Assembly: GCA_963665775.2 (NCBI GenBank)
Contig: CAXXTF010000002.1
Span: 800,001 to 864,000 of the forward strand
Length of the DNA: 64,000 bases
From: Dehalococcoidia bacterium
GTDB lineage: Bacteria > Chloroflexota > Dehalococcoidia > SM23-28-2 > RBG-16-64-32
Reading direction: 5' to 3'
Position 1 is the first letter of the stretch. Each line of letters starts with the position of its first letter. The translations under genes and the position numbers were made by a program. This document shows, piece by piece, positions 30,616 to 62,373 of the stretch. The notes under the pieces were generated by a model. It saw nothing but the letters and a program-made list of their open reading frames with translations, had not been told where the DNA came from and searched no databases.

Positions 30616-32082
30616 CTAGAACTTTCCCGGAGGTGACTCGAATCCGCCAAATAGGTTCGAGGATTTATCCCACCGTTTAACCTCAAGCACCCGCCTCACC
30701 TCGTCGACAACTTCGTCTATCCCCGGCCCTTCCCGATCGCCGATTTCCTCCTCGCCATCATCCTCCGCCTGCACCAGCGCTGCCCCTGCCTCCTCCTCTT
30801 GCACCAGCGCTGCCGCTGCCTCCTCCTGGACCAGCGCTGCCGCTGCCTCCTCCTGGACCAGCGCTGCCGCTGCCTCCTCCCGCACCAGCGCTGCCGCTGC
30901 CTCCTCCCGCACCAACGCTGCCGCTGCCTCCTCCCGCACCAACGCTACCGCTGCCTCTTCCTCCGCCTCCTGCACCGCCGCTGCCTCCTCCTCCCGCACC
31001 AACGCTGCCGCTGCCTCCTCCCGCACCAGCGCTGCCGCTGCCTCCTCCCGCACCAACGCTGCCGCTGCCCCCTCCCGCACCAACGCTGCCGCTGCCTCCT
31101 CCTCGTGCACCAGCGCTGCCGCTGCCTCCTCCCGCACCAACGCTGCCGCTGCCCCCTCCCGCACCAGCGCTGCCGCTGCCTCCTCCTGCGCCAACGCTGC
31201 CGCTGCCTCCTCCTTCGCCAGCACTGCCGCTGCCTCCTCCCGCGCCAGCACTGCCGCTGCCTCCTCCCGCGCCAGCACTGCCGCTGCCTCCTCCCGCGCC
31301 AGCACTGCCGCTGCCTCCTCCCGCACCAACGCTGCCGCTGCCTCCTCCCGCACCAACGCTGCCGCTGCCTCCTCCCGCACCAACGCTGCCGCTGCCTCCT
31401 CCTGCGCCAGCACTGCCGCTGCCTCCTCCTCCCGCACCAACGCTGCCGCTGCCTCCTCCTCCCGCACCAACGCTACCGCTGCCTCCTCCTGCGCCAGCGC
31501 TGCCGCTGCCTCCTCCTGCGCCAGCGCTGCCGCTGCCTCTTCCTCTTGCACCGAGATGTCGACGGCGGTGCTTGGTGGCATGGACGGACTCAACCGAACC
31601 GATCCCGCGCCATCGGCCTCGACAGAGACCAGGGCCGCCCAGTAGACCAGAACCTGTTGGAGGTCAAGCCCCTTCCGGACCTCCAGGCGAACGAATGACT
31701 CTGCCGACTCCATATCGACGAACGAGGTCAAATGAACATGGTCCTCCCTCTCCGGATCACGAACCAGTACCACAACCTCCACAGATGTCGACGCTTCCGC
31801 ATTCGGGTCCGGCGGAGACTGAAGCACCCAAAAGGCAACGAGCCCCTCCCTCAACTCAGGTGGAGAAAGAGACTCGACAAAGTCTGACGCCGGCTCGACG
31901 GTGGCAAACGTATGTACCCGGAAAGACAGGAGACCGCCCACCGTAGGAACGAGCAGCACCATGAGTGCTCCAGTCTCGTCAGGCGACTCTGGAGTCTCGT
32001 CCTGAACCTGATGCTCGGCGGGCGGCGATTCCCCTCCGCCGGATCGGCTACCTGGTAATATCCTACGACGCAACCCTAGCAT
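30616..32082 (-). CDS. Hypothetical protein with a duplicated N-terminal domain and an Ala/Glu repeat rod
   Basis: Unique N- and C-terminal sequence in frame with the repeat. Confidence 0.75.
   Translation of the reverse strand: MLGLRRRILPGSRSGGGESPPAEHQVQDETPESPDETGALMVLLVPTVGGLLSFRVHTFATVEPASDFVESLSPPELREGLVAFWVLQSPPDPNAEASTSVEVVVLVRDPEREDHVHLTSFVDMESAESFVRLEVRKGLDLQQVLVYWAALVSVEADGAGSVRLSPSMPPSTAVDISVQEEEAAAALAQEEAAAALAQEEAAVALVREEEAAAALVREEEAAAVLAQEEAAAALVREEAAAALVREEAAAALVREEAAAVLAREEAAAVLAREEAAAVLAREEAAAVLAKEEAAAALAQEEAAAALVREGAAAALVREEAAAALVHEEEAAAALVREGAAAALVREEAAAALVREEAAAALVREEEAAAVQEAEEEAAVALVREEAAAALVREEAAAALVREEAAAALVQEEAAAALVQEEAAAALVQEEEAGAALVQAEDDGEEEIGDREGPGIDEVVDEVRRVLEVKRWDKSSNLFGGFESPPGKF
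30770..31550. repeat. About 28 tandem 27/30-bp units encoding EE(E)AAAALVR
   Basis: cgctgccgctgcctcctcccgcaccaa-type units. Confidence 0.95.
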
Positions 32083-33487: not shown

Positions 33488-33534
33488 TTGATCCCCATCC
33501 GCCTGCCGCTTATGATTACGGAAACATTAGTTCT
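33488..33534 (+). promoter_or_regulatory. sigma70 promoter plus LexA-type box for the nurA operon
   Basis: TTGATC-N17-TATGAT, then GAAAC-ATTA-GTTCT at 33521-33534. Confidence 0.6.
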
Positions 33535-33590
33535 CTCCATGCACCGGAAGCTGAATCCCTATCTCTGGAACCGACCGTAGGCGGCGACAA

Positions 33591-34664
33591 TTGGAGCCGA
33601 GCGTTGTTACGACTCTGAGCCCCTTGGGAGCGCTGGCCCGGACTTACCGCATCCGCGCGATCGACGACGCGCCCTACACCCCCCTGCCGCTTGCGGAGCA
33701 GACTATCGACGAGGACGAGGCCGCTCTCAAGATAAAGCTCCGCCAGCTCTCCTACGAGCTCCCGGCGGGCAAGTGGCAGCCCATCGTGTGTGAAGGCGAA
33801 CCCTCCTATCCACCACATCGCTTCATTGATGGGAGCGTCTTCTCCCGCACGATAGCCGTGCTCATCGTGGCGGGCCAGCGGCGCCCGGCGGTCCTGGCCT
33901 GTATCGGCGCCCTATCCCTCCAGCTTGAGGGCCGCCGGCTGGTGCGGTCGCCCGGCAGCCTCCGCATGGAAACCGTCCTCTGCCTCCTGAGTAACGGCAT
34001 GCCACGGGAGGACATGCAGACACTAAGCGAAGGCCTGGCGAAGCTCGGCGTTCGGCTCGTGGCCTCAGAGACGACGGACTTGACAGCGGACTTCGACGTG
34101 CTACGCAGGCGTTGCTGGGACCTCGCGAAGCAGCAGATGGAGGATGCTGAGCGCGCTGTCCTCCTCGACTCCCCTGAGTTGCCGGCCCTAGTGGACGGAC
34201 TCCTGGAGCGGAGGCTGGTCACCGTTGCCTCACAGGGGATGCCGGTCGTCGGCATGGTCAAGAGGCAGATGCGGCGGTACCTGCCGGAGTCGCACCTCAA
34301 TCTCCTGTACGACCTCCACCCCGGCCAGCGGACACCGGCCTTCCTGCTCGACACCGAGCACGCATCTATCGTGAGCTGGTACCTGCGCCTGTCGGCACCG
34401 GAATCACTGGCGCCCGGCTACGGCATCGTCCGCCTTACAGCGCCACAACAGTATCTTGAAGAGCGCTTCCCACATCCCGCAGAGCGTTGGGCAGAGATAT
34501 CCGCTGTCTCCGGTTGGCTGCGGAGCCTGCGCCACCGGGAGAGCAGCTACGAGCGCGCCGGTATCTCCATCGAACCCATCGTGCGCGTCGAGGACGAGTT
34601 GCATGCGCTCCTGCCCACAGTCGGACAGGAAGCCTCAAAACTGCATCGAGCCCTAGGTGTGTAG
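33591..34664 (+). CDS. nurA: NurA-like RNase H-fold nuclease
   Basis: FIDGS, LVDGLL, VGMVK and a C-terminal R....PI..VE..L motif; precedes herA. Confidence 0.75.
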   Translation: MEPSVVTTLSPLGALARTYRIRAIDDAPYTPLPLAEQTIDEDEAALKIKLRQLSYELPAGKWQPIVCEGEPSYPPHRFIDGSVFSRTIAVLIVAGQRRPAVLACIGALSLQLEGRRLVRSPGSLRMETVLCLLSNGMPREDMQTLSEGLAKLGVRLVASETTDLTADFDVLRRRCWDLAKQQMEDAERAVLLDSPELPALVDGLLERRLVTVASQGMPVVGMVKRQMRRYLPESHLNLLYDLHPGQRTPAFLLDTEHASIVSWYLRLSAPESLAPGYGIVRLTAPQQYLEERFPHPAERWAEISAVSGWLRSLRHRESSYERAGISIEPIVRVEDELHALLPTVGQEASKLHRALGV

Positions 34665-34673
34665 GAGGACGCG

Positions 34674-36518
34674 ATGACCGGACCGACGGAAGGCCTAGAA
34701 CGACACGACGGTGCCTCGCCCAGCAGCCTCATCCCCATCGGCCGCGTCGGCGCTCCGCGGGGCGCTGAGGCGACGACGGAGCAGTTCTACTTCTGGGTAC
34801 CGGAGGACCGGCTGGTCGAAAAGACGCAACTCGTGTACGTGGAGAGCCCGGCCGGCCCGGCAACCGTGAAGTTCTACGGCCTGGTGACAGAGGTGTTCCG
34901 TCGCTCCCGCCGCTCCGACATGCTGGAGGAGGCAGACCGCTTCGACGGACGTGCCGAGGAGGAGCTGCCCATCGAGAGCCGGGGCGTGACCTACGCCCTG
35001 GTGCGAGTGCTGGCCGCCCAGCCCAACGTCCTCTCGCCGCCCAGAGAGGAGAGCATCGTCTACCCCGCTGACGAGGCGGAGGCCCGTATCGCCTACGGCG
35101 TGGAGGAGATGGGGAACCCCCTGGTCGTCGGCCTGGTGCGCAACGGCGGCGACGCCGTCGCCGGCCCCGCCTACATCGATCAGGACTACCTCCTGGGCGC
35201 GCTGGGCGCGCACATGAACGTCACCGGCATCGCCGGGGCGGGCACCAAGTCCAGCTTCCTGACGATCGTCCTCCAGCAAGTATTGCAGTCTTGCCGTCGC
35301 CACGCCGAGGAACACCCCGAGGACCCTGAGAAACCGCAGGTGCGACCGGTGATCCTCAATGTGAAGGGCTTCGACCTCTTCTGGCTGGACCGTTGGTCGA
35401 ACAGCTTCAGCGAGGAAGACCGCGAAACCTGGCGGCGGATGGGCTGGGAGCAGCCGGCCCCGTTCGATGTAAGCTTCTTCGCCCCCCAGCAACCCGGGAG
35501 CGATCATCTCGCGATGTCGGTCGGTCGTAGCGACGTCCAGCCCTACAGCTGGTCCCTGGAGGACATCGTCAGGGACAACCTCTTCACCTACCTGTTCAGC
35601 GACAGCGACCGGGAGGACGACAACTTCGCCCTGCTGGTGGCGGACGTCGAACGCATCCTGGTGCGGGAATGGCGGCACAACGACGGCACCCCTATGCGGG
35701 AACTGAAGAAGGATGCCCCAGCAACGACCTTTCAAGACCTGTTCGACTGGTTCGAGCGCGGCCTTGGCGACGAGCCGGAGGCAAGTTTCCTGAAGCTGCA
35801 ATCGGGCCAGCACCATCCCGGCACCCTGCGCCGCTTCTACCGCCGACTTCGTCGCATCGTATATGAGAGCGCCGGCATCTTCCGCCTGGGCGGCTTCGGC
35901 AACCACCCCCTGGACATCACCCAAATGGAGACCGGCAGGCCCATCGTCGTGGATATCGAGAGCCTCCCGGACCGCCACCTCCAGCGCTTCGTCGTGGCCG
36001 CGCTGCTCAAGCAGGCCGTCGACCAGCAGACCGGAACGAGCATGCTCCCGGGCATGCACTACATCTTCCTGCTGGACGAGCTAAACCGTTTTGCGCCGCG
36101 CGGCCACAGCGATCCCATCACCCAGCTCATCGAAACCGTCGCCTCGGAGCTCCGGTCCCGCGGCGTGATCCTCCTCGGCGCTCAGCAGCAAGCGTCCCTC
36201 GTGTCGCACCGGGTAGTGGAGAACGCCGCTATCCGGGTCCTCGGTCGCACCGGCGGCCACGAGCTGCGACAGGACGTATTCAGCTTCCTACCAGAGAGCC
36301 TGCGCAACTACGTTGAGCAGCTCGGCAGTGCCGACAAGATCGTCCATCAGCCCAGCTTCCGACAGCCCATGCAGGTGCGCGTGCCGCGGCCGCCCTGGGC
36401 CATGCGCAAGCAGGAAGCGACCACGGAGCCGCCGGCGTTCCTGGCCGCGGAAGGGGCCCAGCCCGCGGCCGCGGGCCCCCGCCGCTTGCCGCCCAGGGCC
36501 TACGACGAGCTGCCCTGA
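34674..36518 (+). CDS. herA: HerA/FtsK-superfamily ATPase with N-terminal HAS-barrel-like region
   Basis: AHMNVTGIAGAGTKSS Walker A, FLLDELNRFAP Walker B, RSRGVILLGAQQ arginine finger and Q motif. Confidence 0.88.
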   Translation: MTGPTEGLERHDGASPSSLIPIGRVGAPRGAEATTEQFYFWVPEDRLVEKTQLVYVESPAGPATVKFYGLVTEVFRRSRRSDMLEEADRFDGRAEEELPIESRGVTYALVRVLAAQPNVLSPPREESIVYPADEAEARIAYGVEEMGNPLVVGLVRNGGDAVAGPAYIDQDYLLGALGAHMNVTGIAGAGTKSSFLTIVLQQVLQSCRRHAEEHPEDPEKPQVRPVILNVKGFDLFWLDRWSNSFSEEDRETWRRMGWEQPAPFDVSFFAPQQPGSDHLAMSVGRSDVQPYSWSLEDIVRDNLFTYLFSDSDREDDNFALLVADVERILVREWRHNDGTPMRELKKDAPATTFQDLFDWFERGLGDEPEASFLKLQSGQHHPGTLRRFYRRLRRIVYESAGIFRLGGFGNHPLDITQMETGRPIVVDIESLPDRHLQRFVVAALLKQAVDQQTGTSMLPGMHYIFLLDELNRFAPRGHSDPITQLIETVASELRSRGVILLGAQQQASLVSHRVVENAAIRVLGRTGGHELRQDVFSFLPESLRNYVEQLGSADKIVHQPSFRQPMQVRVPRPPWAMRKQEATTEPPAFLAAEGAQPAAAGPRRLPPRAYDELP

Positions 36519-37702
36519 TGCGCATCATCCACACGAGCGACTGGCATCTCGGGGCCCGTCTGGGCAGCCAGAACCGGCTGGACGACCAGTTCGCCCGCCT
36601 CCGAGAGCTGTGCGACTACATCGACCGGGAGGAGGCTGACCTCCTCCTGGTCGCCGGCGACGTCTTCGACGAGCACCGGGCGGACGCCCTCGCTCGCATT
36701 ATCGGTCGCCTGGCGCGCCTTCTCACGCCCCGCATCGAGGCGGGCCTCTCCTGCGTGTTCATCGCCGGCAACCACGATCGGGAGCACGTGTTTCCCCTGC
36801 TGCGGGGGCTACAGGAGCTAGTCGCCGCGGAGGACCGGTCGCGCGTGATCTTCGCCGAAAGGCCGTCTCTCGTGCCGATAGTGAGCCGCAGCGGCGAAGC
36901 CGTCCAACTGGTGCTGGTACCCTACCCCACGGCCGTCCGCTACAACCTGACAGACCAGCGTTGGCCCAGCCCGGATACCAAGCGATTCGCCCTGGCCGAC
37001 GCCGTGCGCACATCTATCCAGGAGTTGGGGAGGGAGGCTCGCAGCGCCGGGCGCGGCCTGCCCACGGTGTTGTGCGGCCACTTCCTGGTGCGCGGCGTCA
37101 AGGAGGGCTTTTACCACCTCACGGAGCAAGCGGACATCCCGTTAGAGCCCGGGGACCTTCCCGCCTACGCCTATATAGCCCTGGGACACATCCACAAGCC
37201 CCAACAGGTAGGCGCACCCTACATTCGCTATTGCGGCAGCCTGGAGCGGATGGATCGGGGCGAGGCCCAGGATCGGAAGCAGGCCTTGCTCGTCGAGCTA
37301 GGTCGCGACGGTCTCCGCGACGTGCGCGAGCTCCCCCTCAACGCCACCCCCTTCGCCCAGGTGGAAGCGTCCACAGAGGCCGACCTGGAGGCCGCCGCCG
37401 CCAACCTCAGGGAGCCGGAGCGCACCCTGGTATCCCTCACCGTCACCCTGCAACAGGACCAGAGCCTTGGCGCCCTGCAAGCCCGCGCCCGCCACCTATT
37501 CCCTCGCCTGTACGGGGCGCCGGAGGTACGCCGGGCGGACGCACCGAAAGCCGCCCACCCTGCCGTAGACGTGGACCGCAGCGACGTGCCAGGCACCGTA
37601 GACGCCTATCTGCGAGAGGCGCTCCGGGACGACCCTGACGCCGAAGCCCTGATTGCCCTCGCCACCCAGCTCCTGACGGAGGTGACCGGACCCCAACCAT
37701 GA
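36518..37702 (+). CDS. sbcD: Mre11/SbcD metallophosphoesterase nuclease
   Basis: HTSDWHLG, AGDVFD, GNHD, GH, LGHIH, YCGSL. Confidence 0.93.
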   Translation: MRIIHTSDWHLGARLGSQNRLDDQFARLRELCDYIDREEADLLLVAGDVFDEHRADALARIIGRLARLLTPRIEAGLSCVFIAGNHDREHVFPLLRGLQELVAAEDRSRVIFAERPSLVPIVSRSGEAVQLVLVPYPTAVRYNLTDQRWPSPDTKRFALADAVRTSIQELGREARSAGRGLPTVLCGHFLVRGVKEGFYHLTEQADIPLEPGDLPAYAYIALGHIHKPQQVGAPYIRYCGSLERMDRGEAQDRKQALLVELGRDGLRDVRELPLNATPFAQVEASTEADLEAAAANLREPERTLVSLTVTLQQDQSLGALQARARHLFPRLYGAPEVRRADAPKAAHPAVDVDRSDVPGTVDAYLREALRDDPDAEALIALATQLLTEVTGPQP

Positions 37703-40470
37703 TCCCAGTCCGCGTCCTGGTACGAAACTTCCTCTGTTACAGCGAGATGGAAGACGGCACCCCTATCGAATTCGACTTCGAGGGGTCGCGGTTGTGGAGC
37801 ATCACCGGCGACAACGGTGCCGGCAAAAGCGCCATCTTCGATGCCATCACCTACGCCCTGTTCGGACAGCACCGGGGCGGGGCGCAGGATGACGCCCGGC
37901 TCATCCACAAGGGCGCTCTCGAGTGCGAAGCCACCTTCGAGTTCCGCCTCGACGAGCGCCTCTACCGCGTGCGCCGGACGGTAAGTCGGCGCCGAGGAAA
38001 GGCAGCCCAGGACCCGAAAACGTGGCAGGCTGCCTGGTTCGACCCAGACGCCGGAGACTGGAGGCCCATCCAGGAAACGGAGCGAGAGCGCGGCCTCCAG
38101 CGGTGGGTGCAGAACCAACTGGGCTTCGGCTATGAAACGTTCGTGGCGTCCATACTGCTTCTCCAGGGACAGAGCGATCAGCTTATCACCGCCCGGCCCA
38201 AGGCACGGTTCGAGATTCTGAGCGGGCTGCTGGACTTGCAGCCCTACGAGCGGCTGGAAACGGCAGCTCTTGCGCATATGAGATCGGCCCGGACCCAGGT
38301 TCAGAACCTCGATGCCCAACTGGCCGGCCTCCCAGCAGCCGTGGCAGAAGAGATGGAGGAGGCGCGCTCAGCCCTGCGGGCAGGGGAGGAAGCCCTTCAG
38401 AAAGCTCAGGCGAGTATGGCCCAGGCGGAGGTGCTGGTCAACGAGGCCACACGCTACGCTCAGTTGCAAACGGACTTGGCCGAGGCAAGCGACGCCCTGG
38501 CACAGACAGAGGCGCTGCTCCAGGACGCCGACCGCATCCGCCAGGAGTATCAGGAATGGCATCGGCTTTCAGAGGCGCTGCCGAAGCTAGGCGCTGCCCT
38601 GACGGATCTCCAGGAGAAGGATATCCAAGCGGCCCAAGCAGAGGAAGCAGGCGCCGCAGCCGCTGCCATCGATATGGAAGCGCTGGAACGCGCAAAGGCG
38701 GCGGCGGAGAAAGAGGAGCATCAGACGGAGCAGCGAGCCAGCGACCTACGCGTACAACACGACGAGCTGGCCCTGGCCCTGCCGCCGTTGCGCGAGATCC
38801 TTCAGCAGCGCAGTGAGCTCTCGGAGCGCGCGCAAGCCGCAGCCGAGGTAGGCGCAGCACACGAATGGGAGGCTCGCATCGCCCAGTTGGAGGACGATCT
38901 CCGAGGGCGGCAAGAAGAGCAGCGAAAGGCCGACGAGGAGCTGCGACAGGCGCTGGAGGCTGTAGCTCAAGCCGAGGCTGCCGTTGGGCAAGCGGAGCAG
39001 CAGCTGGTTGCCCGGCGAGAGGCGCAGGACGAGGCAGTCTGCTCGCGCTGCGGCCAACCGGTTGACCCTGAGCACATCCGGCGCGAGCTAGAGGACGCGG
39101 AACGGACCGTCGCTTTGGCCCAGGCACCGATGGAGGGCGCCAAACAGGACCGGCTCATAGCTGGCAGCGATGTGACGGCCGCGGCCGAGCGCGTGGAAAC
39201 GACGAGTCGGGAGATAGAGACTGCCCGTCACGGACTCGCCGCGTCTCGCCGGGCGGACGAAGAGCGGCAGCGGGCGCAGGCAAGACTGGACGCCGTCATC
39301 GGCGCCGCAGCGCAGGCACCGGCGGACCGGCGCGCCGCTGTTGCGGAGCGCCCGCTGGCTGGGGCCACCGCAGCTGTCGACGAACTTGATGAGCGAACCA
39401 GCGTACTGCGGGCCCGAATCCAGACGGCAGGCGAAATGGAGAGGAAGGCTCGCAAGGGTTATCGCGACGCCCAGCAGGCCTATCAGGATGCGCTTCGCAA
39501 CCGAGAACAGCTACAAGCCGATGCTCAGCGTCTGGAGGAGAAAGCCCAGGGATTTAGCAGACAGGCGGTGGTCCGGCTTAGCGGCCTGAATCCTGAGTGG
39601 TGCCGACGGGCTCTCGCACAAGACGAGCCGTTTGTTCGAGAACTCTCCACCCGGCGTTCTGCCCTGGAAGGCGTCGACAAACAGCATCGAGCCCTGGAAG
39701 GCGCCCTCGCCGAGCGGGGCCAGTTGGAGCCTCGTGTCCAGGAACTCCATCGCAGCGTCGAGGCGGTGAGACCGGGGCACCGCCTGCCATTAGGAGAGGC
39801 GGACAGCCGGCAAAGGGAGGCCCAGAGCCATCTGAGTGTCAGCCAGAGCCGTCGTGACGAGGCCAGGGAGACCTTTCGCCGCCTGGAAGAGACTCTCGAG
39901 CGCCGGCAGCAGATCGAGACCGAACAAACCGCTGCCAATCGCCGGCGCGCCCTTAACGCTCGCCTGGCCGACCTGTTTGGACGAAGGGGGCTTCAGGGCT
40001 ACCTGATGAACGCAGCGATCCAGGGAATCTCAGACCTGGCCAACGAAACCCTTGCCCGCATCTCCGCCGGTCAGCTCCAGCTCCAGATCGTACGACAGGC
40101 ATCGGCCGGCGGTGAGGAAGAGATCGTCATCCAGACCACGGACCTCGCTTCTAGCGACGACCCGCTCGACGTGCAGTTTATCTCAGGGAGCCAGAAGTTC
40201 CGCACCTCGGTGGCGCTGGCAGCGGGTATCGGCCAGTACGCTGGTCGAGGCGTAGGCAGCGTGCGTTCCCTCATCATCGATGAAGGATTCGGCAGCCTGG
40301 ACACTCAGGGCCGCCAGGAGATGATCGACGAGCTACGCAACCTGTCTGATCTCATGGACCGCGTCATTGTCGTCAGCCACCAGGAGGACTTCCAGGATCG
40401 CACGCTGTTCCCAACAGGGTACGTCCTGCGCAAGATCGGGCAGCGGACAGAGGTAGAGCGCTTTGTGTGA
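37699..40470 (+). CDS. sbcC: Rad50/SbcC SMC-like ATPase
   Basis: GDNGAGKS, Q-loop LLQG, central CSRC zinc hook, ISGSQK signature, IIDEGFGSLD, VSH. Confidence 0.93.
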   Translation: MIPVRVLVRNFLCYSEMEDGTPIEFDFEGSRLWSITGDNGAGKSAIFDAITYALFGQHRGGAQDDARLIHKGALECEATFEFRLDERLYRVRRTVSRRRGKAAQDPKTWQAAWFDPDAGDWRPIQETERERGLQRWVQNQLGFGYETFVASILLLQGQSDQLITARPKARFEILSGLLDLQPYERLETAALAHMRSARTQVQNLDAQLAGLPAAVAEEMEEARSALRAGEEALQKAQASMAQAEVLVNEATRYAQLQTDLAEASDALAQTEALLQDADRIRQEYQEWHRLSEALPKLGAALTDLQEKDIQAAQAEEAGAAAAAIDMEALERAKAAAEKEEHQTEQRASDLRVQHDELALALPPLREILQQRSELSERAQAAAEVGAAHEWEARIAQLEDDLRGRQEEQRKADEELRQALEAVAQAEAAVGQAEQQLVARREAQDEAVCSRCGQPVDPEHIRRELEDAERTVALAQAPMEGAKQDRLIAGSDVTAAAERVETTSREIETARHGLAASRRADEERQRAQARLDAVIGAAAQAPADRRAAVAERPLAGATAAVDELDERTSVLRARIQTAGEMERKARKGYRDAQQAYQDALRNREQLQADAQRLEEKAQGFSRQAVVRLSGLNPEWCRRALAQDEPFVRELSTRRSALEGVDKQHRALEGALAERGQLEPRVQELHRSVEAVRPGHRLPLGEADSRQREAQSHLSVSQSRRDEARETFRRLEETLERRQQIETEQTAANRRRALNARLADLFGRRGLQGYLMNAAIQGISDLANETLARISAGQLQLQIVRQASAGGEEEIVIQTTDLASSDDPLDVQFISGSQKFRTSVALAAGIGQYAGRGVGSVRSLIIDEGFGSLDTQGRQEMIDELRNLSDLMDRVIVVSHQEDFQDRTLFPTGYVLRKIGQRTEVERFV

Positions 40471-59928: not shown

Positions 59929-60669
59929 CGTAATTATCCCCTTAACGTAGGTACTTGTTCATGGTACGATATCCCCGAAAGGTAGGTAGAAACCATGAAC
60001 AAGTACACAATCCGAGACCTCGATAGTCAGTTCCCCACGGACGATGCTTGCCTGGACTGGCTGAAGGATTACCTCTACCCCGATGGCATCTTTTGCAAGG
60101 TCTGCCAAGCCGTCACTAAGCATCATCGGATTAAGAGCCGCACTTCCTACTCATGTGACCGCTGCGGGCACCATGAGCACCCGATGGCCGAAACGATTTT
60201 CGAGAACTCACGCACCCCGCTCCGACTGTGGTTCCATGCTGTATTTCTCATGGCCTCCACACGCTGCGGCATTTCGGCTAAGCAGCTTGAGCGTCAATTG
60301 GGCGTCACCTATAAGACGGCTTGGCGCATGTTCAAGCAGATTCGTACCCTTCTGGCTGAGCCGCCTAGCCTCCTCTCCGGCCAAGTGGAGGTTGATGAGA
60401 CCTACATCGGCGGCAGGCCGCGTCAGAGCACCGACAGGCGAACCGCCGCCCGAACCCGCATGAGTAACAAGTCTGCGGTTGTTGGCCATGTCCAGCGCGG
60501 TGGTAGGCTTCACGCCATCCACCTACCAGATGGTACAGCCAAGGTGCTGGTGCCCCTAGTTGAACAGTACATCATCCCTGGCTCCACGGTTTACAGCGAC
60601 GAACTCCCCGCCTACAAGGCGCTTGCCCGTAAGGGCTACCAGCACAAGCGGGTCCACCACGCTGCTAAG
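59929..60669 (+). mobile_element. IS1595-family element, left part only
   Basis: CGTAATTATCCC putative left end, then the transposase; cut at 60669 by the IS1380. Confidence 0.8.
59995..60669 (+). pseudogene. IS1595-family transposase, truncated
   Basis: Zn ribbon CKVC/CDRC, HTH, VEVDETY, VYSDE; the C-terminal N..E catalytic segment is missing. Confidence 0.85.
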
Positions 60670-62373
60670 CCCGAATCCACCGAAGGACGGCCTTGGGGAC
60701 AGTCCTTGAAGAAGCCATCGGGTGCTCCTCTGAATCTGGGATAATGGTTTTGGAACAGAAACCAGCCCGGAAACAAGGAGCACCCAATAGATGCTGCCAC
60801 AGAACAAACCCGACCGTATCCGCATCCTCTTTGACGACCATCGCCTGGTGGCCAATGCCGGCCTGCTCCTGCCAGCCACCCTAGCCCGGCACCTGGGCCT
60901 GCGGGAACTCGTCGACCATCACCTTGACCTCGGCGGAGCGCCGGGACGGGCGAACACTGGGGACAAGATGCTGACGCTGGTCGCTTCCGCGCTGGCAGGC
61001 GGCGACTGCATCGACGACGCCGATGCGCTGCGCGCTGGTGGGACGGTCGGTGTTCTAGGCTGCGTGGTCAAGGCGCCATCCACCCTGGGGACCTTCCTGC
61101 GCAGCTTCCGGTGGGGGCATGTCCGTCAACTCGACCGCGTGAGCCGCCAGTTGTTGGCCCGGGCCTGGGCCGCTGGGGCCGGACCCGGCGACTCGCCCCT
61201 GACCATCGACCTGAACTCGACCATCTGCGAGACCTATGGACTGGCCAAGGAGGGAGCGCGCCACCACGGCTATACCGGCGCCCGCGGCTATCACCCGCTG
61301 CTGGCCATTGCCGCCGGCACCGGCGAGGTGCTGATGTCCCGGCTGCGCGAGGGCCGGGCCAACACCGCCCGTGGCGCCGCCCACTTCCTGCGTGAGACGG
61401 TGGGGCGGGTGCGCTACGGCGGGGCCAGGGGACAACTCACGGTGCGGGCCGACAGCGGCTTCTACGCCCACACTGTCGTTGCCGCCTGCCGGGAAATGGA
61501 TGTCCGCTTCTCTATCACCATCCGCCAGCGCGCCAGCCTGCGGGACCTGATCGAGGCGATACCAGAGGAGGACTGGACTCCCATTCCCTACTGGATGGAC
61601 GGCGCCGCCGATGTCGCCGAGACGACTTACACCCCGTTCCAGACCAAGCCGGACGCCGCGCCGGTGCGGCTCATTGTCCGGCGGGTGAAGCCGACGCCCG
61701 GTTCCCAGCTCGCCCTCTTCGCCAGATACAGCTATCACGCCTTCATCACCGACCGCGATGGGGAGACGCTGGAACTGGAGGCCGATCATCGCCGCCACGC
61801 CGAGGTCGAGAACGCCATACGCGACCTCAAGTACGGCGTCGGGCTGAACCACATGCCGTCGAGGCGCTTCGCCGCCAACGGCGCCTGGCTGGCGGTCCAG
61901 GTGATGGCGCATAACCTGGCCCGCTGGACAGCCCGCATCGGCCTGGGTCAGCAGATCGTGACCACCAAGACCCTCAGGCGGCGGGTCTTCGCTCTCGTGG
62001 GACGGATCACCCGCTCGGCGCGCCGCCTCACTTTGCATCTCCCCCGGCGCTGGCCTTGGGAAACCCAGTTCAGTCGCGCCTTGGCCCGGCTGCAAGCCAT
62101 TCCATTCCCGGCCTGACGGCCAGCCTGCAACTGACCCAACGTCCCCGCAATCTCGCGCCACCCCGGTCGCGAGAGTCCCCTGCTGCGTATCCTCTCGCCA
62201 TCCCGCGCATCGCAACTCCCGCATAGGGCCTTAGGGGCCCTGTGCGGCGACTGAAGACCGTCCGCCGGCCTCCCATCTACCCCAAGACCCCAGGCCATCT
62301 CCCCTGTAGCTCCCTCACCCACCCCCTTCCGCTGTCCTCACACCGTCCATCCGTGTCCTTCGGTGGATTCGGG
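60670..62373 (+). mobile_element. IS1380-family insertion sequence (about 1.7 kb)
   Basis: Perfect 19-bp terminal IRs cccgaatccaccgaaggac / gtccttcggtggattcggg (the IR could extend 4 bp further). Confidence 0.9.
60791..62116 (+). CDS. IS1380-family DDE transposase (first catalytic Asp appears to be Asn)
   Basis: APSTLGTFLR, GYHPL, LREG.A, VRADSGFY, HR.HA.VENAIRDLK. Confidence 0.92.
   Translation: MLPQNKPDRIRILFDDHRLVANAGLLLPATLARHLGLRELVDHHLDLGGAPGRANTGDKMLTLVASALAGGDCIDDADALRAGGTVGVLGCVVKAPSTLGTFLRSFRWGHVRQLDRVSRQLLARAWAAGAGPGDSPLTIDLNSTICETYGLAKEGARHHGYTGARGYHPLLAIAAGTGEVLMSRLREGRANTARGAAHFLRETVGRVRYGGARGQLTVRADSGFYAHTVVAACREMDVRFSITIRQRASLRDLIEAIPEEDWTPIPYWMDGAADVAETTYTPFQTKPDAAPVRLIVRRVKPTPGSQLALFARYSYHAFITDRDGETLELEADHRRHAEVENAIRDLKYGVGLNHMPSRRFAANGAWLAVQVMAHNLARWTARIGLGQQIVTTKTLRRRVFALVGRITRSARRLTLHLPRRWPWETQFSRALARLQAIPFPA

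Follow-up and report, generated by a model that had tools for sequence, protein, structure and literature searches.

The closest described relative of the system treated here is the NurA-HerA pair of Deinococcus radiodurans, a nuclease and a hexameric ATPase. Recent papers describe NurA-HerA as confined to a few bacteria and as not clustered with SbcCD (PMC9960219, PMC13748450), and what it does in vivo is said to be a matter of controversy; the second of these, a 2026 review, presents bacterial nurA as without four-gene clustering, and a linkage of herA with sbcD-sbcC in Oceanithermus was noted by Blesa et al. 2017 (PMC5448004). We have analysed a nurA-herA-sbcD-sbcC operon in the genome of a Dehalococcoidia bacterium (contig CAXXTF010000002.1, positions 800,001 to 864,000; this whole 64-kb stretch is the window below). 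We consider it reasonably likely that this is a damage-inducible DNA-end processing operon that was acquired sideways, every step beyond the gene calls being one that we infer.

The four genes and their products

The genome of the analysed window (G000 below) is 2.35 Mb in 2 contigs, is rated 91% complete and has a single lexA and a single recA. Its place in the Dehalococcoidia agrees with the nearest named loci, which are labelled as such and whose genomes group with others of the class on RpoB. The first-pass annotation, made from the sequence of the window, had described four tightly coupled genes, and both the open reading frames (ORFs) and their junctions stand (33591-40470, all on the + strand): nurA and herA are separated by a 9-nt gap that contains GGAGGA, herA and sbcD overlap in TGATG, and sbcD and sbcC overlap in ATGA. 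The entire 9.1-kb stretch was recovered as one near-identical contig in each of two DNA runs from two studies, either of which may be where this DNA came from. From one RNA run (share 0.07) only a 243-nt piece of herA was obtained, at depth 2.2.

The first gene, nurA (33591-34664, +), has a TTG start that is uncertain by about 10 codons, and its 357-aa product is predicted to be a bacterial-type 5'-3' nuclease with an RNase H fold. Direct scans of this protein against Pfam, NCBIfam and PADLOC gave no match. A profile built from 80 of the 242 homologues found matches D. radiodurans NurA (7F6D) with E 6.5e-40 and T. maritima TM1739 with E 1e-15, and 20 of the 80 members of the profile match Pfam NurA. 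The top Foldseek matches of the predicted model (pLDDT 93.9) are 7F6D, 1ZUP and 2YGK, the first two ranking ahead of Sulfolobus NurA (2YGK, E 1e-6) and of 3TAI and 9X1N. The sequence alignment to 7F6D begins only after the N-terminal pin-like motif of that protein. The protein keeps D80, D202, K224 and R322, that is, both DG motifs plus the Lys and the Arg, and the residues D53, K201 and R309 that are essential in D. radiodurans NurA (PMC9960219) align with D80, K224 and R322. Atlas also suggested NurA-bearing clusters at 0.96, with a recognition value below threshold, which we take as a lead only. The profile, the fold match and the kept catalytic residues thus bear out the earlier call of a NurA-like nuclease, and on sequence and model the gene 1 product is a NurA with intact catalytic residues.

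The second gene, herA (34674-36518, +), encodes a full-length 614-aa protein, a bacterial-type hexameric ATPase/translocase by its match to D. radiodurans HerA. It has no Pfam, NCBIfam or PADLOC match, and its sole match in the PDB is D. radiodurans HerA (E 3.1e-46, residues 25-583). A profile of 43 HerA relatives gave E 7.7e-71 for the Deinococcus protein versus 0.56 for Thermococcus HerA (9X1L). The Walker A motif, GIAGAGTKSS at residue 185, is degenerate, and Walker B is LDE. Because this HerA matches Deinococcus HerA and hardly that of Thermococcus, the odd Walker A is of the bacterial, Deinococcus type, and the idea of an "archaeal-style" machine in the first-pass annotation finds no support.

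The third gene, sbcD (36518-37702, +; 394 aa), encodes a Mre11 family nuclease that scores 122.9 bits with TIGR00619 (cut-off 77.65) and has the phosphoesterase motifs; archaeal Mre11 models score only 36-41 bits. The fourth, sbcC (37699-40470, +; 923 aa), encodes a Rad50 family SMC ATPase whose best model is TIGR00618 (161.5 bits, below its cut-off of 478.5) and whose best PDB match is E. coli SbcC; its motifs are Walker A at 37, the Q-loop at 155, a CSRC hook at 448, the ISGSQK signature at 828, Walker B at 859 and the H-loop at 892. For both proteins the SbcD/SbcC models score above the archaeal Mre11/Rad50 models, and both genes are single copy: sbcD gave 1 match in the whole genome, and the remaining AAA_23 match besides sbcC is a 1244-aa frame of SMC length. 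These PDB and family-model matches support the calls of genes 2-4 as herA, sbcD and sbcC. Within the reach of these comparisons (our trees contained no archaeal sequences), the four proteins appear to be of bacterial type in an archaeal-like linkage and do not look imported from archaea.

Distribution and lateral movement of the operon

How unusual is this gene order? HerA of the operon family was found in 27 of 61 near relatives and in 41 of the 201 genomes of the class. Among the first 20 loci retrieved, 19 have the four genes and the remaining one is cut by a contig end; class-wide, all four are present at 45 of 57 HerA loci, and several of the misses are contig ends and several a separate two-gene paralogue. 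When the best 80 of 141 named loci were considered, 50 of the 55 with full flanks, from 10 phyla, hold all four genes. The rarity supposed in the first-pass annotation is therefore not borne out, since the gene order is a common feature of the lineage (an outcome named beforehand as speaking against the claim), though not a well characterised one; bacterial herA-nurA neighbourhoods are reportedly discussed by Iyer et al. 2004 in their treatment of the FtsK-HerA superfamily, where the four-gene linkage may already be in print. The locus counts contradict the statement in PMC13748450 that such clustering is missing in bacteria. For this lineage, then, the arrangement is nothing unusual, although the literature has hardly described it, and the part worth following is a variant that moves sideways and has a changed switch.

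Two other arrangements occur in the class. Three loci, L040 (genome G050), L228 (G078) and L233 (G137), have the permuted order herA-sbcD-sbcC-nurA, which is that of the Sulfolobales; in G050 and in G137 there is also another herA locus. A separate nurA-herA paralogue, which lacks sbcDC and has the Walker A GISGLA[TA]KTS, is found at L232, L237, L238, L239 and L242.

The suggestion in the first-pass annotation that the divergent motifs mark a distinct clade held. The lineage's usual operon has the Walker A G[IV]SGVATKTS, the signature LSGGE and the hook CPVC, and the clade of the present operon has GIAG[AV]GTKSS, mostly SGSQ or SGGQ, and CS[RH]C, the SGSQ signature of SbcC being a clade-wide trait. 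The HerA described here is about 32% identical to the usual HerA of the lineage, and the two groups are well apart in all trees (FastTree or LG+G4). Close copies (73-83%) are present in six Chloroflexota genomes (G000, G012 and G061-G064), each of which has a single herA and none of which shows a copy of the lineage's usual operon. These six hosts do not form one clade on RpoB (AU p 3e-5) and represent at least four lineages; in the RpoB tree G064 is a long, half-filled row. Close copies are also recorded in Binatota and Myxococcota, and between members of the subclade in different classes and phyla the HerA proteins are 71-82% identical. Because the hosts are not one RpoB clade and close copies lie in Binatota and Myxococcota, the unit has moved sideways. 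HerA relatives are found on 2 plasmids (48% and 42%), and the phages have only two distant HerA proteins (24-26%).

In the nearest wider relatives, three coupled genes precede nurA, which encode a sigma-70-family factor, an unknown protein of about 200 aa and an IrrE/ImmA protease. Of the 64 loci with room for them, 46 have the full trio and 49 an IrrE gene (among L142-L210; examples directly before nurA are L143:3173-5300, L148:3349-5305 and L164:3323-5311), and loci that bear it often then carry Wadjet, Cas, WYL or pAgo genes. G000 has no trio at the operon locus and, by profile searches, no IrrE or partner gene genome-wide. We found no paper on this seven-gene sigma/IrrE cassette in the open-access literature. 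The idea that the present subclade is the sigma/IrrE cassette minus its switch was tried and found no clear support (AU p 0.48; L165, which lacks the trio, was kept in the sigma/IrrE group since it is nested there). In a fuller tree the order of three branches is not resolved, and one of the three is another LexA-box branch of the same class. Other switches are seen within the subclade, namely a fusion of a helix-turn-helix (HTH) domain with IrrE before nurA (L138:4283-5395) and a divergent CapH-like HTH gene (L147:4853-5251).

The "accessory region" of the first-pass annotation is not visible at the locus: regional GC is 0.64-0.68 against 0.63 for the genome, the GC3 of the operon genes falls at the 24th-85th percentile among 768 long ORFs, the 64-kb window has no tRNA gene, and no integrase adjoins the operon. 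A "recent island" reading was dropped, there being no sign of it in GC, GC3, tRNA or integrase. The neighbours are metabolic and housekeeping genes, the one directly upstream being a divergent nitrilase; comEC lies about 6 kb upstream. G000 and G012 alike have a PAC2-family gene near the operon, which suggests that the operon's position is settled. Elsewhere in the window, IS1595 and IS1380 transposases (59995-62116, about 20 kb downstream) are the sole mobile genes among the scanned ORFs of at least 200 aa, and a 488-aa protein without a Pfam match (30616-32082, -) contains 28 tandem copies of a 27-nt unit (30762-31543) that encode Ala/Glu-rich repeats.

The promoter and a probable LexA operator

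The predicted sigma-70-type promoter TTGATC-N17-TATGAT claimed in the first-pass annotation is present at 33488-33516 (+) and is the only promoter-like + strand match upstream of the operon; the search gave 5 matches in 7.5 kb versus 0.8 in shuffles. Over the predicted start site lies a probable LexA operator, GGAAACATTAGTTCTC (33520-33535, not assigned to a strand), with the core AAAC-ATTA-GTTC at 33522-33533. The LexA-type box had been placed correctly and is not perfect, its AAAC-N4-GTTC being one mismatch from GAAC-N4-GTTC. Genome-wide there are 20 perfect GAAC-N4-GTTC sites and 28 AAAC sites with one mismatch.

The GAAC-N4-GTTC LexA box is used in Chloroflexota, for which the basis within this analysis is the motif of the lexA leaders. 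A randomly seeded palindrome search of 30 lexA leaders of relatives found CGAAC-N4-GTTCG de novo, a motif of the Gram-positive type (PMC3323433). Against the matrix derived from these leaders the operon box scores 12.75 bits, which is rank 9 of 1231 leaders. Perfect boxes precede lexA and imuB-dnaE2 in G000, and uvrA is preceded by the same AAAC variant as the operon. When six related leaders from the subclade are compared, no block other than the box is invariant, L023 and L136 share the -35/17/-10/box layout with the operon, and the box is missing in the subclade's two non-Chloroflexota hosts (L132, 2.5 bits; L134, 3.7 bits). Of 56 operon leaders in the class (G000 left out and one cut leader dropped), 15 have a box of at least 11 bits, versus 1.8% of 2726 control windows, an enrichment of about 15-fold, and in the order herA-sbcD-sbcC-nurA the box tracks the first gene (L040, 14.5 bits; L228, 11.4 bits; none in L233). 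Matrix rank, the six-leader footprint and class enrichment make the proposed LexA control a probable one, and we hold it to be quite likely that this control is functional. Searches of the open-access literature found no report of nurA-herA under LexA control.

Other sites came to light in these searches. The f1 relatives that carry the lineage's usual operon (L025, L027-L031, L042, L230, L245 and L247) have a conserved TTGCCAACAA ... TTCCGTTGAC about 40-80 nt before nurA and no LexA box; this element would be the site of another regulator or a promoter. Perfect LexA-type boxes also lie at L043 (G000 contig C1, 564254 and 565299) and L047 (contig C2, 108298), beside a terminase-like gene and before a 298-aa ORF, and these loci are possibly SOS-controlled mobile remnants. 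The uvrA gene appears to be split (L054:824-2999; G000 C2, about 1414300-1416500) into a 556-aa ORF and a second one, overlapping it in a different frame, that encodes the rest of the protein; the cause would be a frameshift or an assembly error.

Function, and comparison with known systems

What else could process double-strand ends in this cell? As the first-pass annotation supposed, genome searches of G000 found no AddAB or RecBCD and no second sbcCD: there is no match for the PF12705 nuclease or for AddB-like queries, AddA-like queries reach only PcrA (the one UvrD-family gene), and Ku and RecQ are absent. RecJ, RecO and RecR are present, and RecJ stops at the OB fold. Neither PF12705 nor AddA was found in any of the subclade's six Chloroflexota hosts, and PF12705 is found in 55 of the 61 near relatives. 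On RpoB, G000 lies among AddA-bearing relatives, and AddAB was therefore lost or is unassembled. The operon is the only recognisable double-strand-end machine in G000. The same six genomes are also without the stand-alone PD-(D/E)XK protein of about 260 aa that most relatives have.

In the mechanism that we envisage, LexA would repress the operon until damage, when RecA on single-stranded DNA (ssDNA) would trigger LexA cleavage and derepression. SbcCD would bind, open and clip blocked or hairpin ends, HerA would pump the duplex end through the NurA dimer, which would degrade it and leave ssDNA, and RecJ and RecFOR would hand this to RecA, completing repair. This copy would stand in for the lineage's usual nurA-herA-sbcDC and, in G000, for AddAB. 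LexA control of sbcCD is known in S. aureus (PMC11442139).

Several observations weigh against such a damage-inducible repair operon. The mismatch of the box falls on a nearly invariant G, 42 of 2.35 million genomic positions (30 of them in coding DNA) score as high, recA in G000 has no such box, f1 relatives with the lineage's usual operon mostly lack one, and 69 leaders of named loci are not enriched (3 of 69 at 10 bits or more versus 7.4% of the control). Hosts that have AddA can carry a box as well (6 of 34 versus 9 of 22 otherwise, kin being non-independent). Deletion of nurA-herA in D. radiodurans gave about 10-fold higher resistance to UV and mitomycin, and the authors of that study doubt efficient resection (PMC9960219). 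AddAB could have been missed, since the G000 assembly is 91% complete and those of the five further hosts are incomplete or have no rating; a protein that clusters with this HerA at 90% is recorded on a 4.6-Mb contig, which makes a larger host genome possible; and the four independent AddA-less host lineages are not significant against the class rate (128 of 201). Among the 201 genomes, 26 have HerA and AddA, 15 HerA only, 47 AddA only and 113 neither (counted by hand, with the three best AddA candidates scored per genome). Two wider ideas were tried against these counts: that the operon replaces AddAB across the class was rejected, as AddA is present in 26 of the 41 carriers, and that a LexA box occurs only where AddAB is missing proved weak, as the boxes of the 6 AddA-bearing hosts reach 11-17 bits and the AddA-less cases are mostly one family.

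The company that the relatives keep also tells against repair and bears on the strongest of the alternatives, a damage-induced defence in which SbcCD would sense free or protein-capped phage or plasmid ends, NurA-HerA would degrade them and LexA would take the part of CapH/CapP. When the nearest flanking ORFs were scanned with PADLOC (threshold E<=1e-10), matches were found at 18 of 34 scanned loci of the sigma/IrrE branch (Wadjet, Cas1/3/4/10, Ssp, PglX, pAgo and restriction-modification, a few of them generic) and at 5 of 5 (L137-L140 and L147), versus 1 of 14 loci whose operon belongs to the usual clade of the lineage. The defence-island context proposed for this locus, however, was not found: none of the 8 flanking proteins here has a match, nor does any of the 6 loci L131-L136, and L175 has one short restriction-modification fragment. 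The wider clade keeps defence company and the operon copy here does not. Mobility between classes and phyla, the close HerA relatives on the 2 plasmids, and the IrrE/ImmA protease of the sister branch (49 of 64), from a family that activates CBASS (bioRxiv 2022.04.27.489752), would suit such a role, and an antiviral role for bacterial NurA-HerA is asserted in the 2026 review (PMC13748450). Within the operon, the LmuB model matches SbcC at E 1e-30; NurA and HerA match no PADLOC model, and the HerA profile does not match defence HerA structures (best other HerA, E 0.39). The operon moreover holds the genome's only sbcCD, its position near the PAC2-family gene in G000 and G012 looks settled, and no integrase or tRNA adjoins it. 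We regard a defence function at this locus as unlikely, though well worth keeping in view.

An SOS-induced unit that degrades ends or cleans forks and so limits recombination, while RecJ-RecFOR does the real resection, is less probable still, and we would be surprised by it. It would remove dead-end ends, hairpins and excess linear DNA, or process incoming transformation DNA, and comEC about 6 kb upstream would fit the last of these. The more resistant Deinococcus knock-out points the same way, as does the ability of the complex to cut a 3' tail (PMC9960219), and RecJ here has no room for the C-terminal domain by which Deinococcus RecJ binds HerA (PMC4663267). The 113 class genomes with neither HerA nor AddA and the 26 with both would make the operon dispensable and not redundant with AddAB. 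The Deinococcus work, on the other hand, dealt with a nurA-herA to which no SbcCD is linked, and SbcCD may determine strand bias; RecJ here has no RecQ partner, and the six Chloroflexota hosts all lack AddA. Finally, a constitutive repair unit whose box is a chance or relic site is very improbable, for the mismatch at a conserved base, the 42 equally high positions and the boxless f1 relatives that suggest it are outweighed by the placement over the start site, the six-leader footprint, the class enrichment and the lack of a box in the two hosts outside Chloroflexota.

Beyond the preferred reading of a laterally acquired, damage-inducible end-processing operon, a broader picture is conceivable, which we put forward only tentatively and as the less likely outcome: the four genes would form a portable module whose damage switch can be exchanged, and this would be a fourth bacterial route of double-strand-end resection that shuttles between immunity and repair by promoter change. 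In Planctomycetota, Cyanobacteriota, Armatimonadota and others it would have its own sigma/IrrE switch, often amid defence genes, and in several unrelated Dehalococcoidia the host LexA would have been plugged in and AddAB and the native nurA-herA-sbcDC replaced. The locus itself is one of many. The four-gene unit is present in at least 10 phyla, contrary to recent papers, and a genome in which it is the only double-strand-end machine, under probable LexA control, makes the in-vivo role testable; cultured carriers of the sister branch exist in Calothrix, Thermogemmatispora and Zavarzinella.

Among known systems, Sir2-HerA, DUF4297-HerA and TdpAB are HerA defence systems, and Lamassu and Wadjet are SMC systems. 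They share with the operon the plan of a nuclease with a HerA motor or a Rad50-like ATPase; unlike in the HerA defence systems, HerA here is of another clade, SbcD is present, and there is no PADLOC match for NurA or HerA and no defence neighbour. The seven-gene cassette (sigma factor, unknown protein and IrrE before nurA-herA-sbcD-sbcC) includes the nearest relatives (HerA 41-51%) and has the same order and the SGSQ signature, whereas the operon here lacks the trio and has a host LexA box instead. In S. aureus, sbcDC is, like this operon, under a GAAC-N4-GTTC box, but there is no NurA-HerA there and AddAB (RexAB) is present (PMC11442139). The herA(hepA)-sbcD-sbcC of Oceanithermus profundus has the same bacterial linkage, which its authors read as an archaeal-like break-repair unit, in a one-sentence remark on one genus that itself holds no analysis of regulation, range or clade (PMC5448004). 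D. radiodurans NurA-HerA (7F6D, 7WRW, 7WRX; PMC9960219) is the best sequence and fold match, with the essential NurA residues kept, and its HerA Walker A, GISGVATKTS, also found in the lineage's usual clade, is of the same degenerate type as GIAG[AV]GTKSS here; unlike it, the present operon is linked to sbcD-sbcC and a LexA-type box, and the genome has a RecJ without the C-terminal extension and no RecQ. The archaeal herA-mre11-rad50-nurA operon (PMC13748450) has the same four activities in one unit and shares the NurA fold, but its gene order differs and the proteins here are of bacterial type. On paper, then, the operon would work like the archaeal system, yet by descent of its proteins it belongs to the NurA-HerA family of bacteria, here linked with SbcCD.

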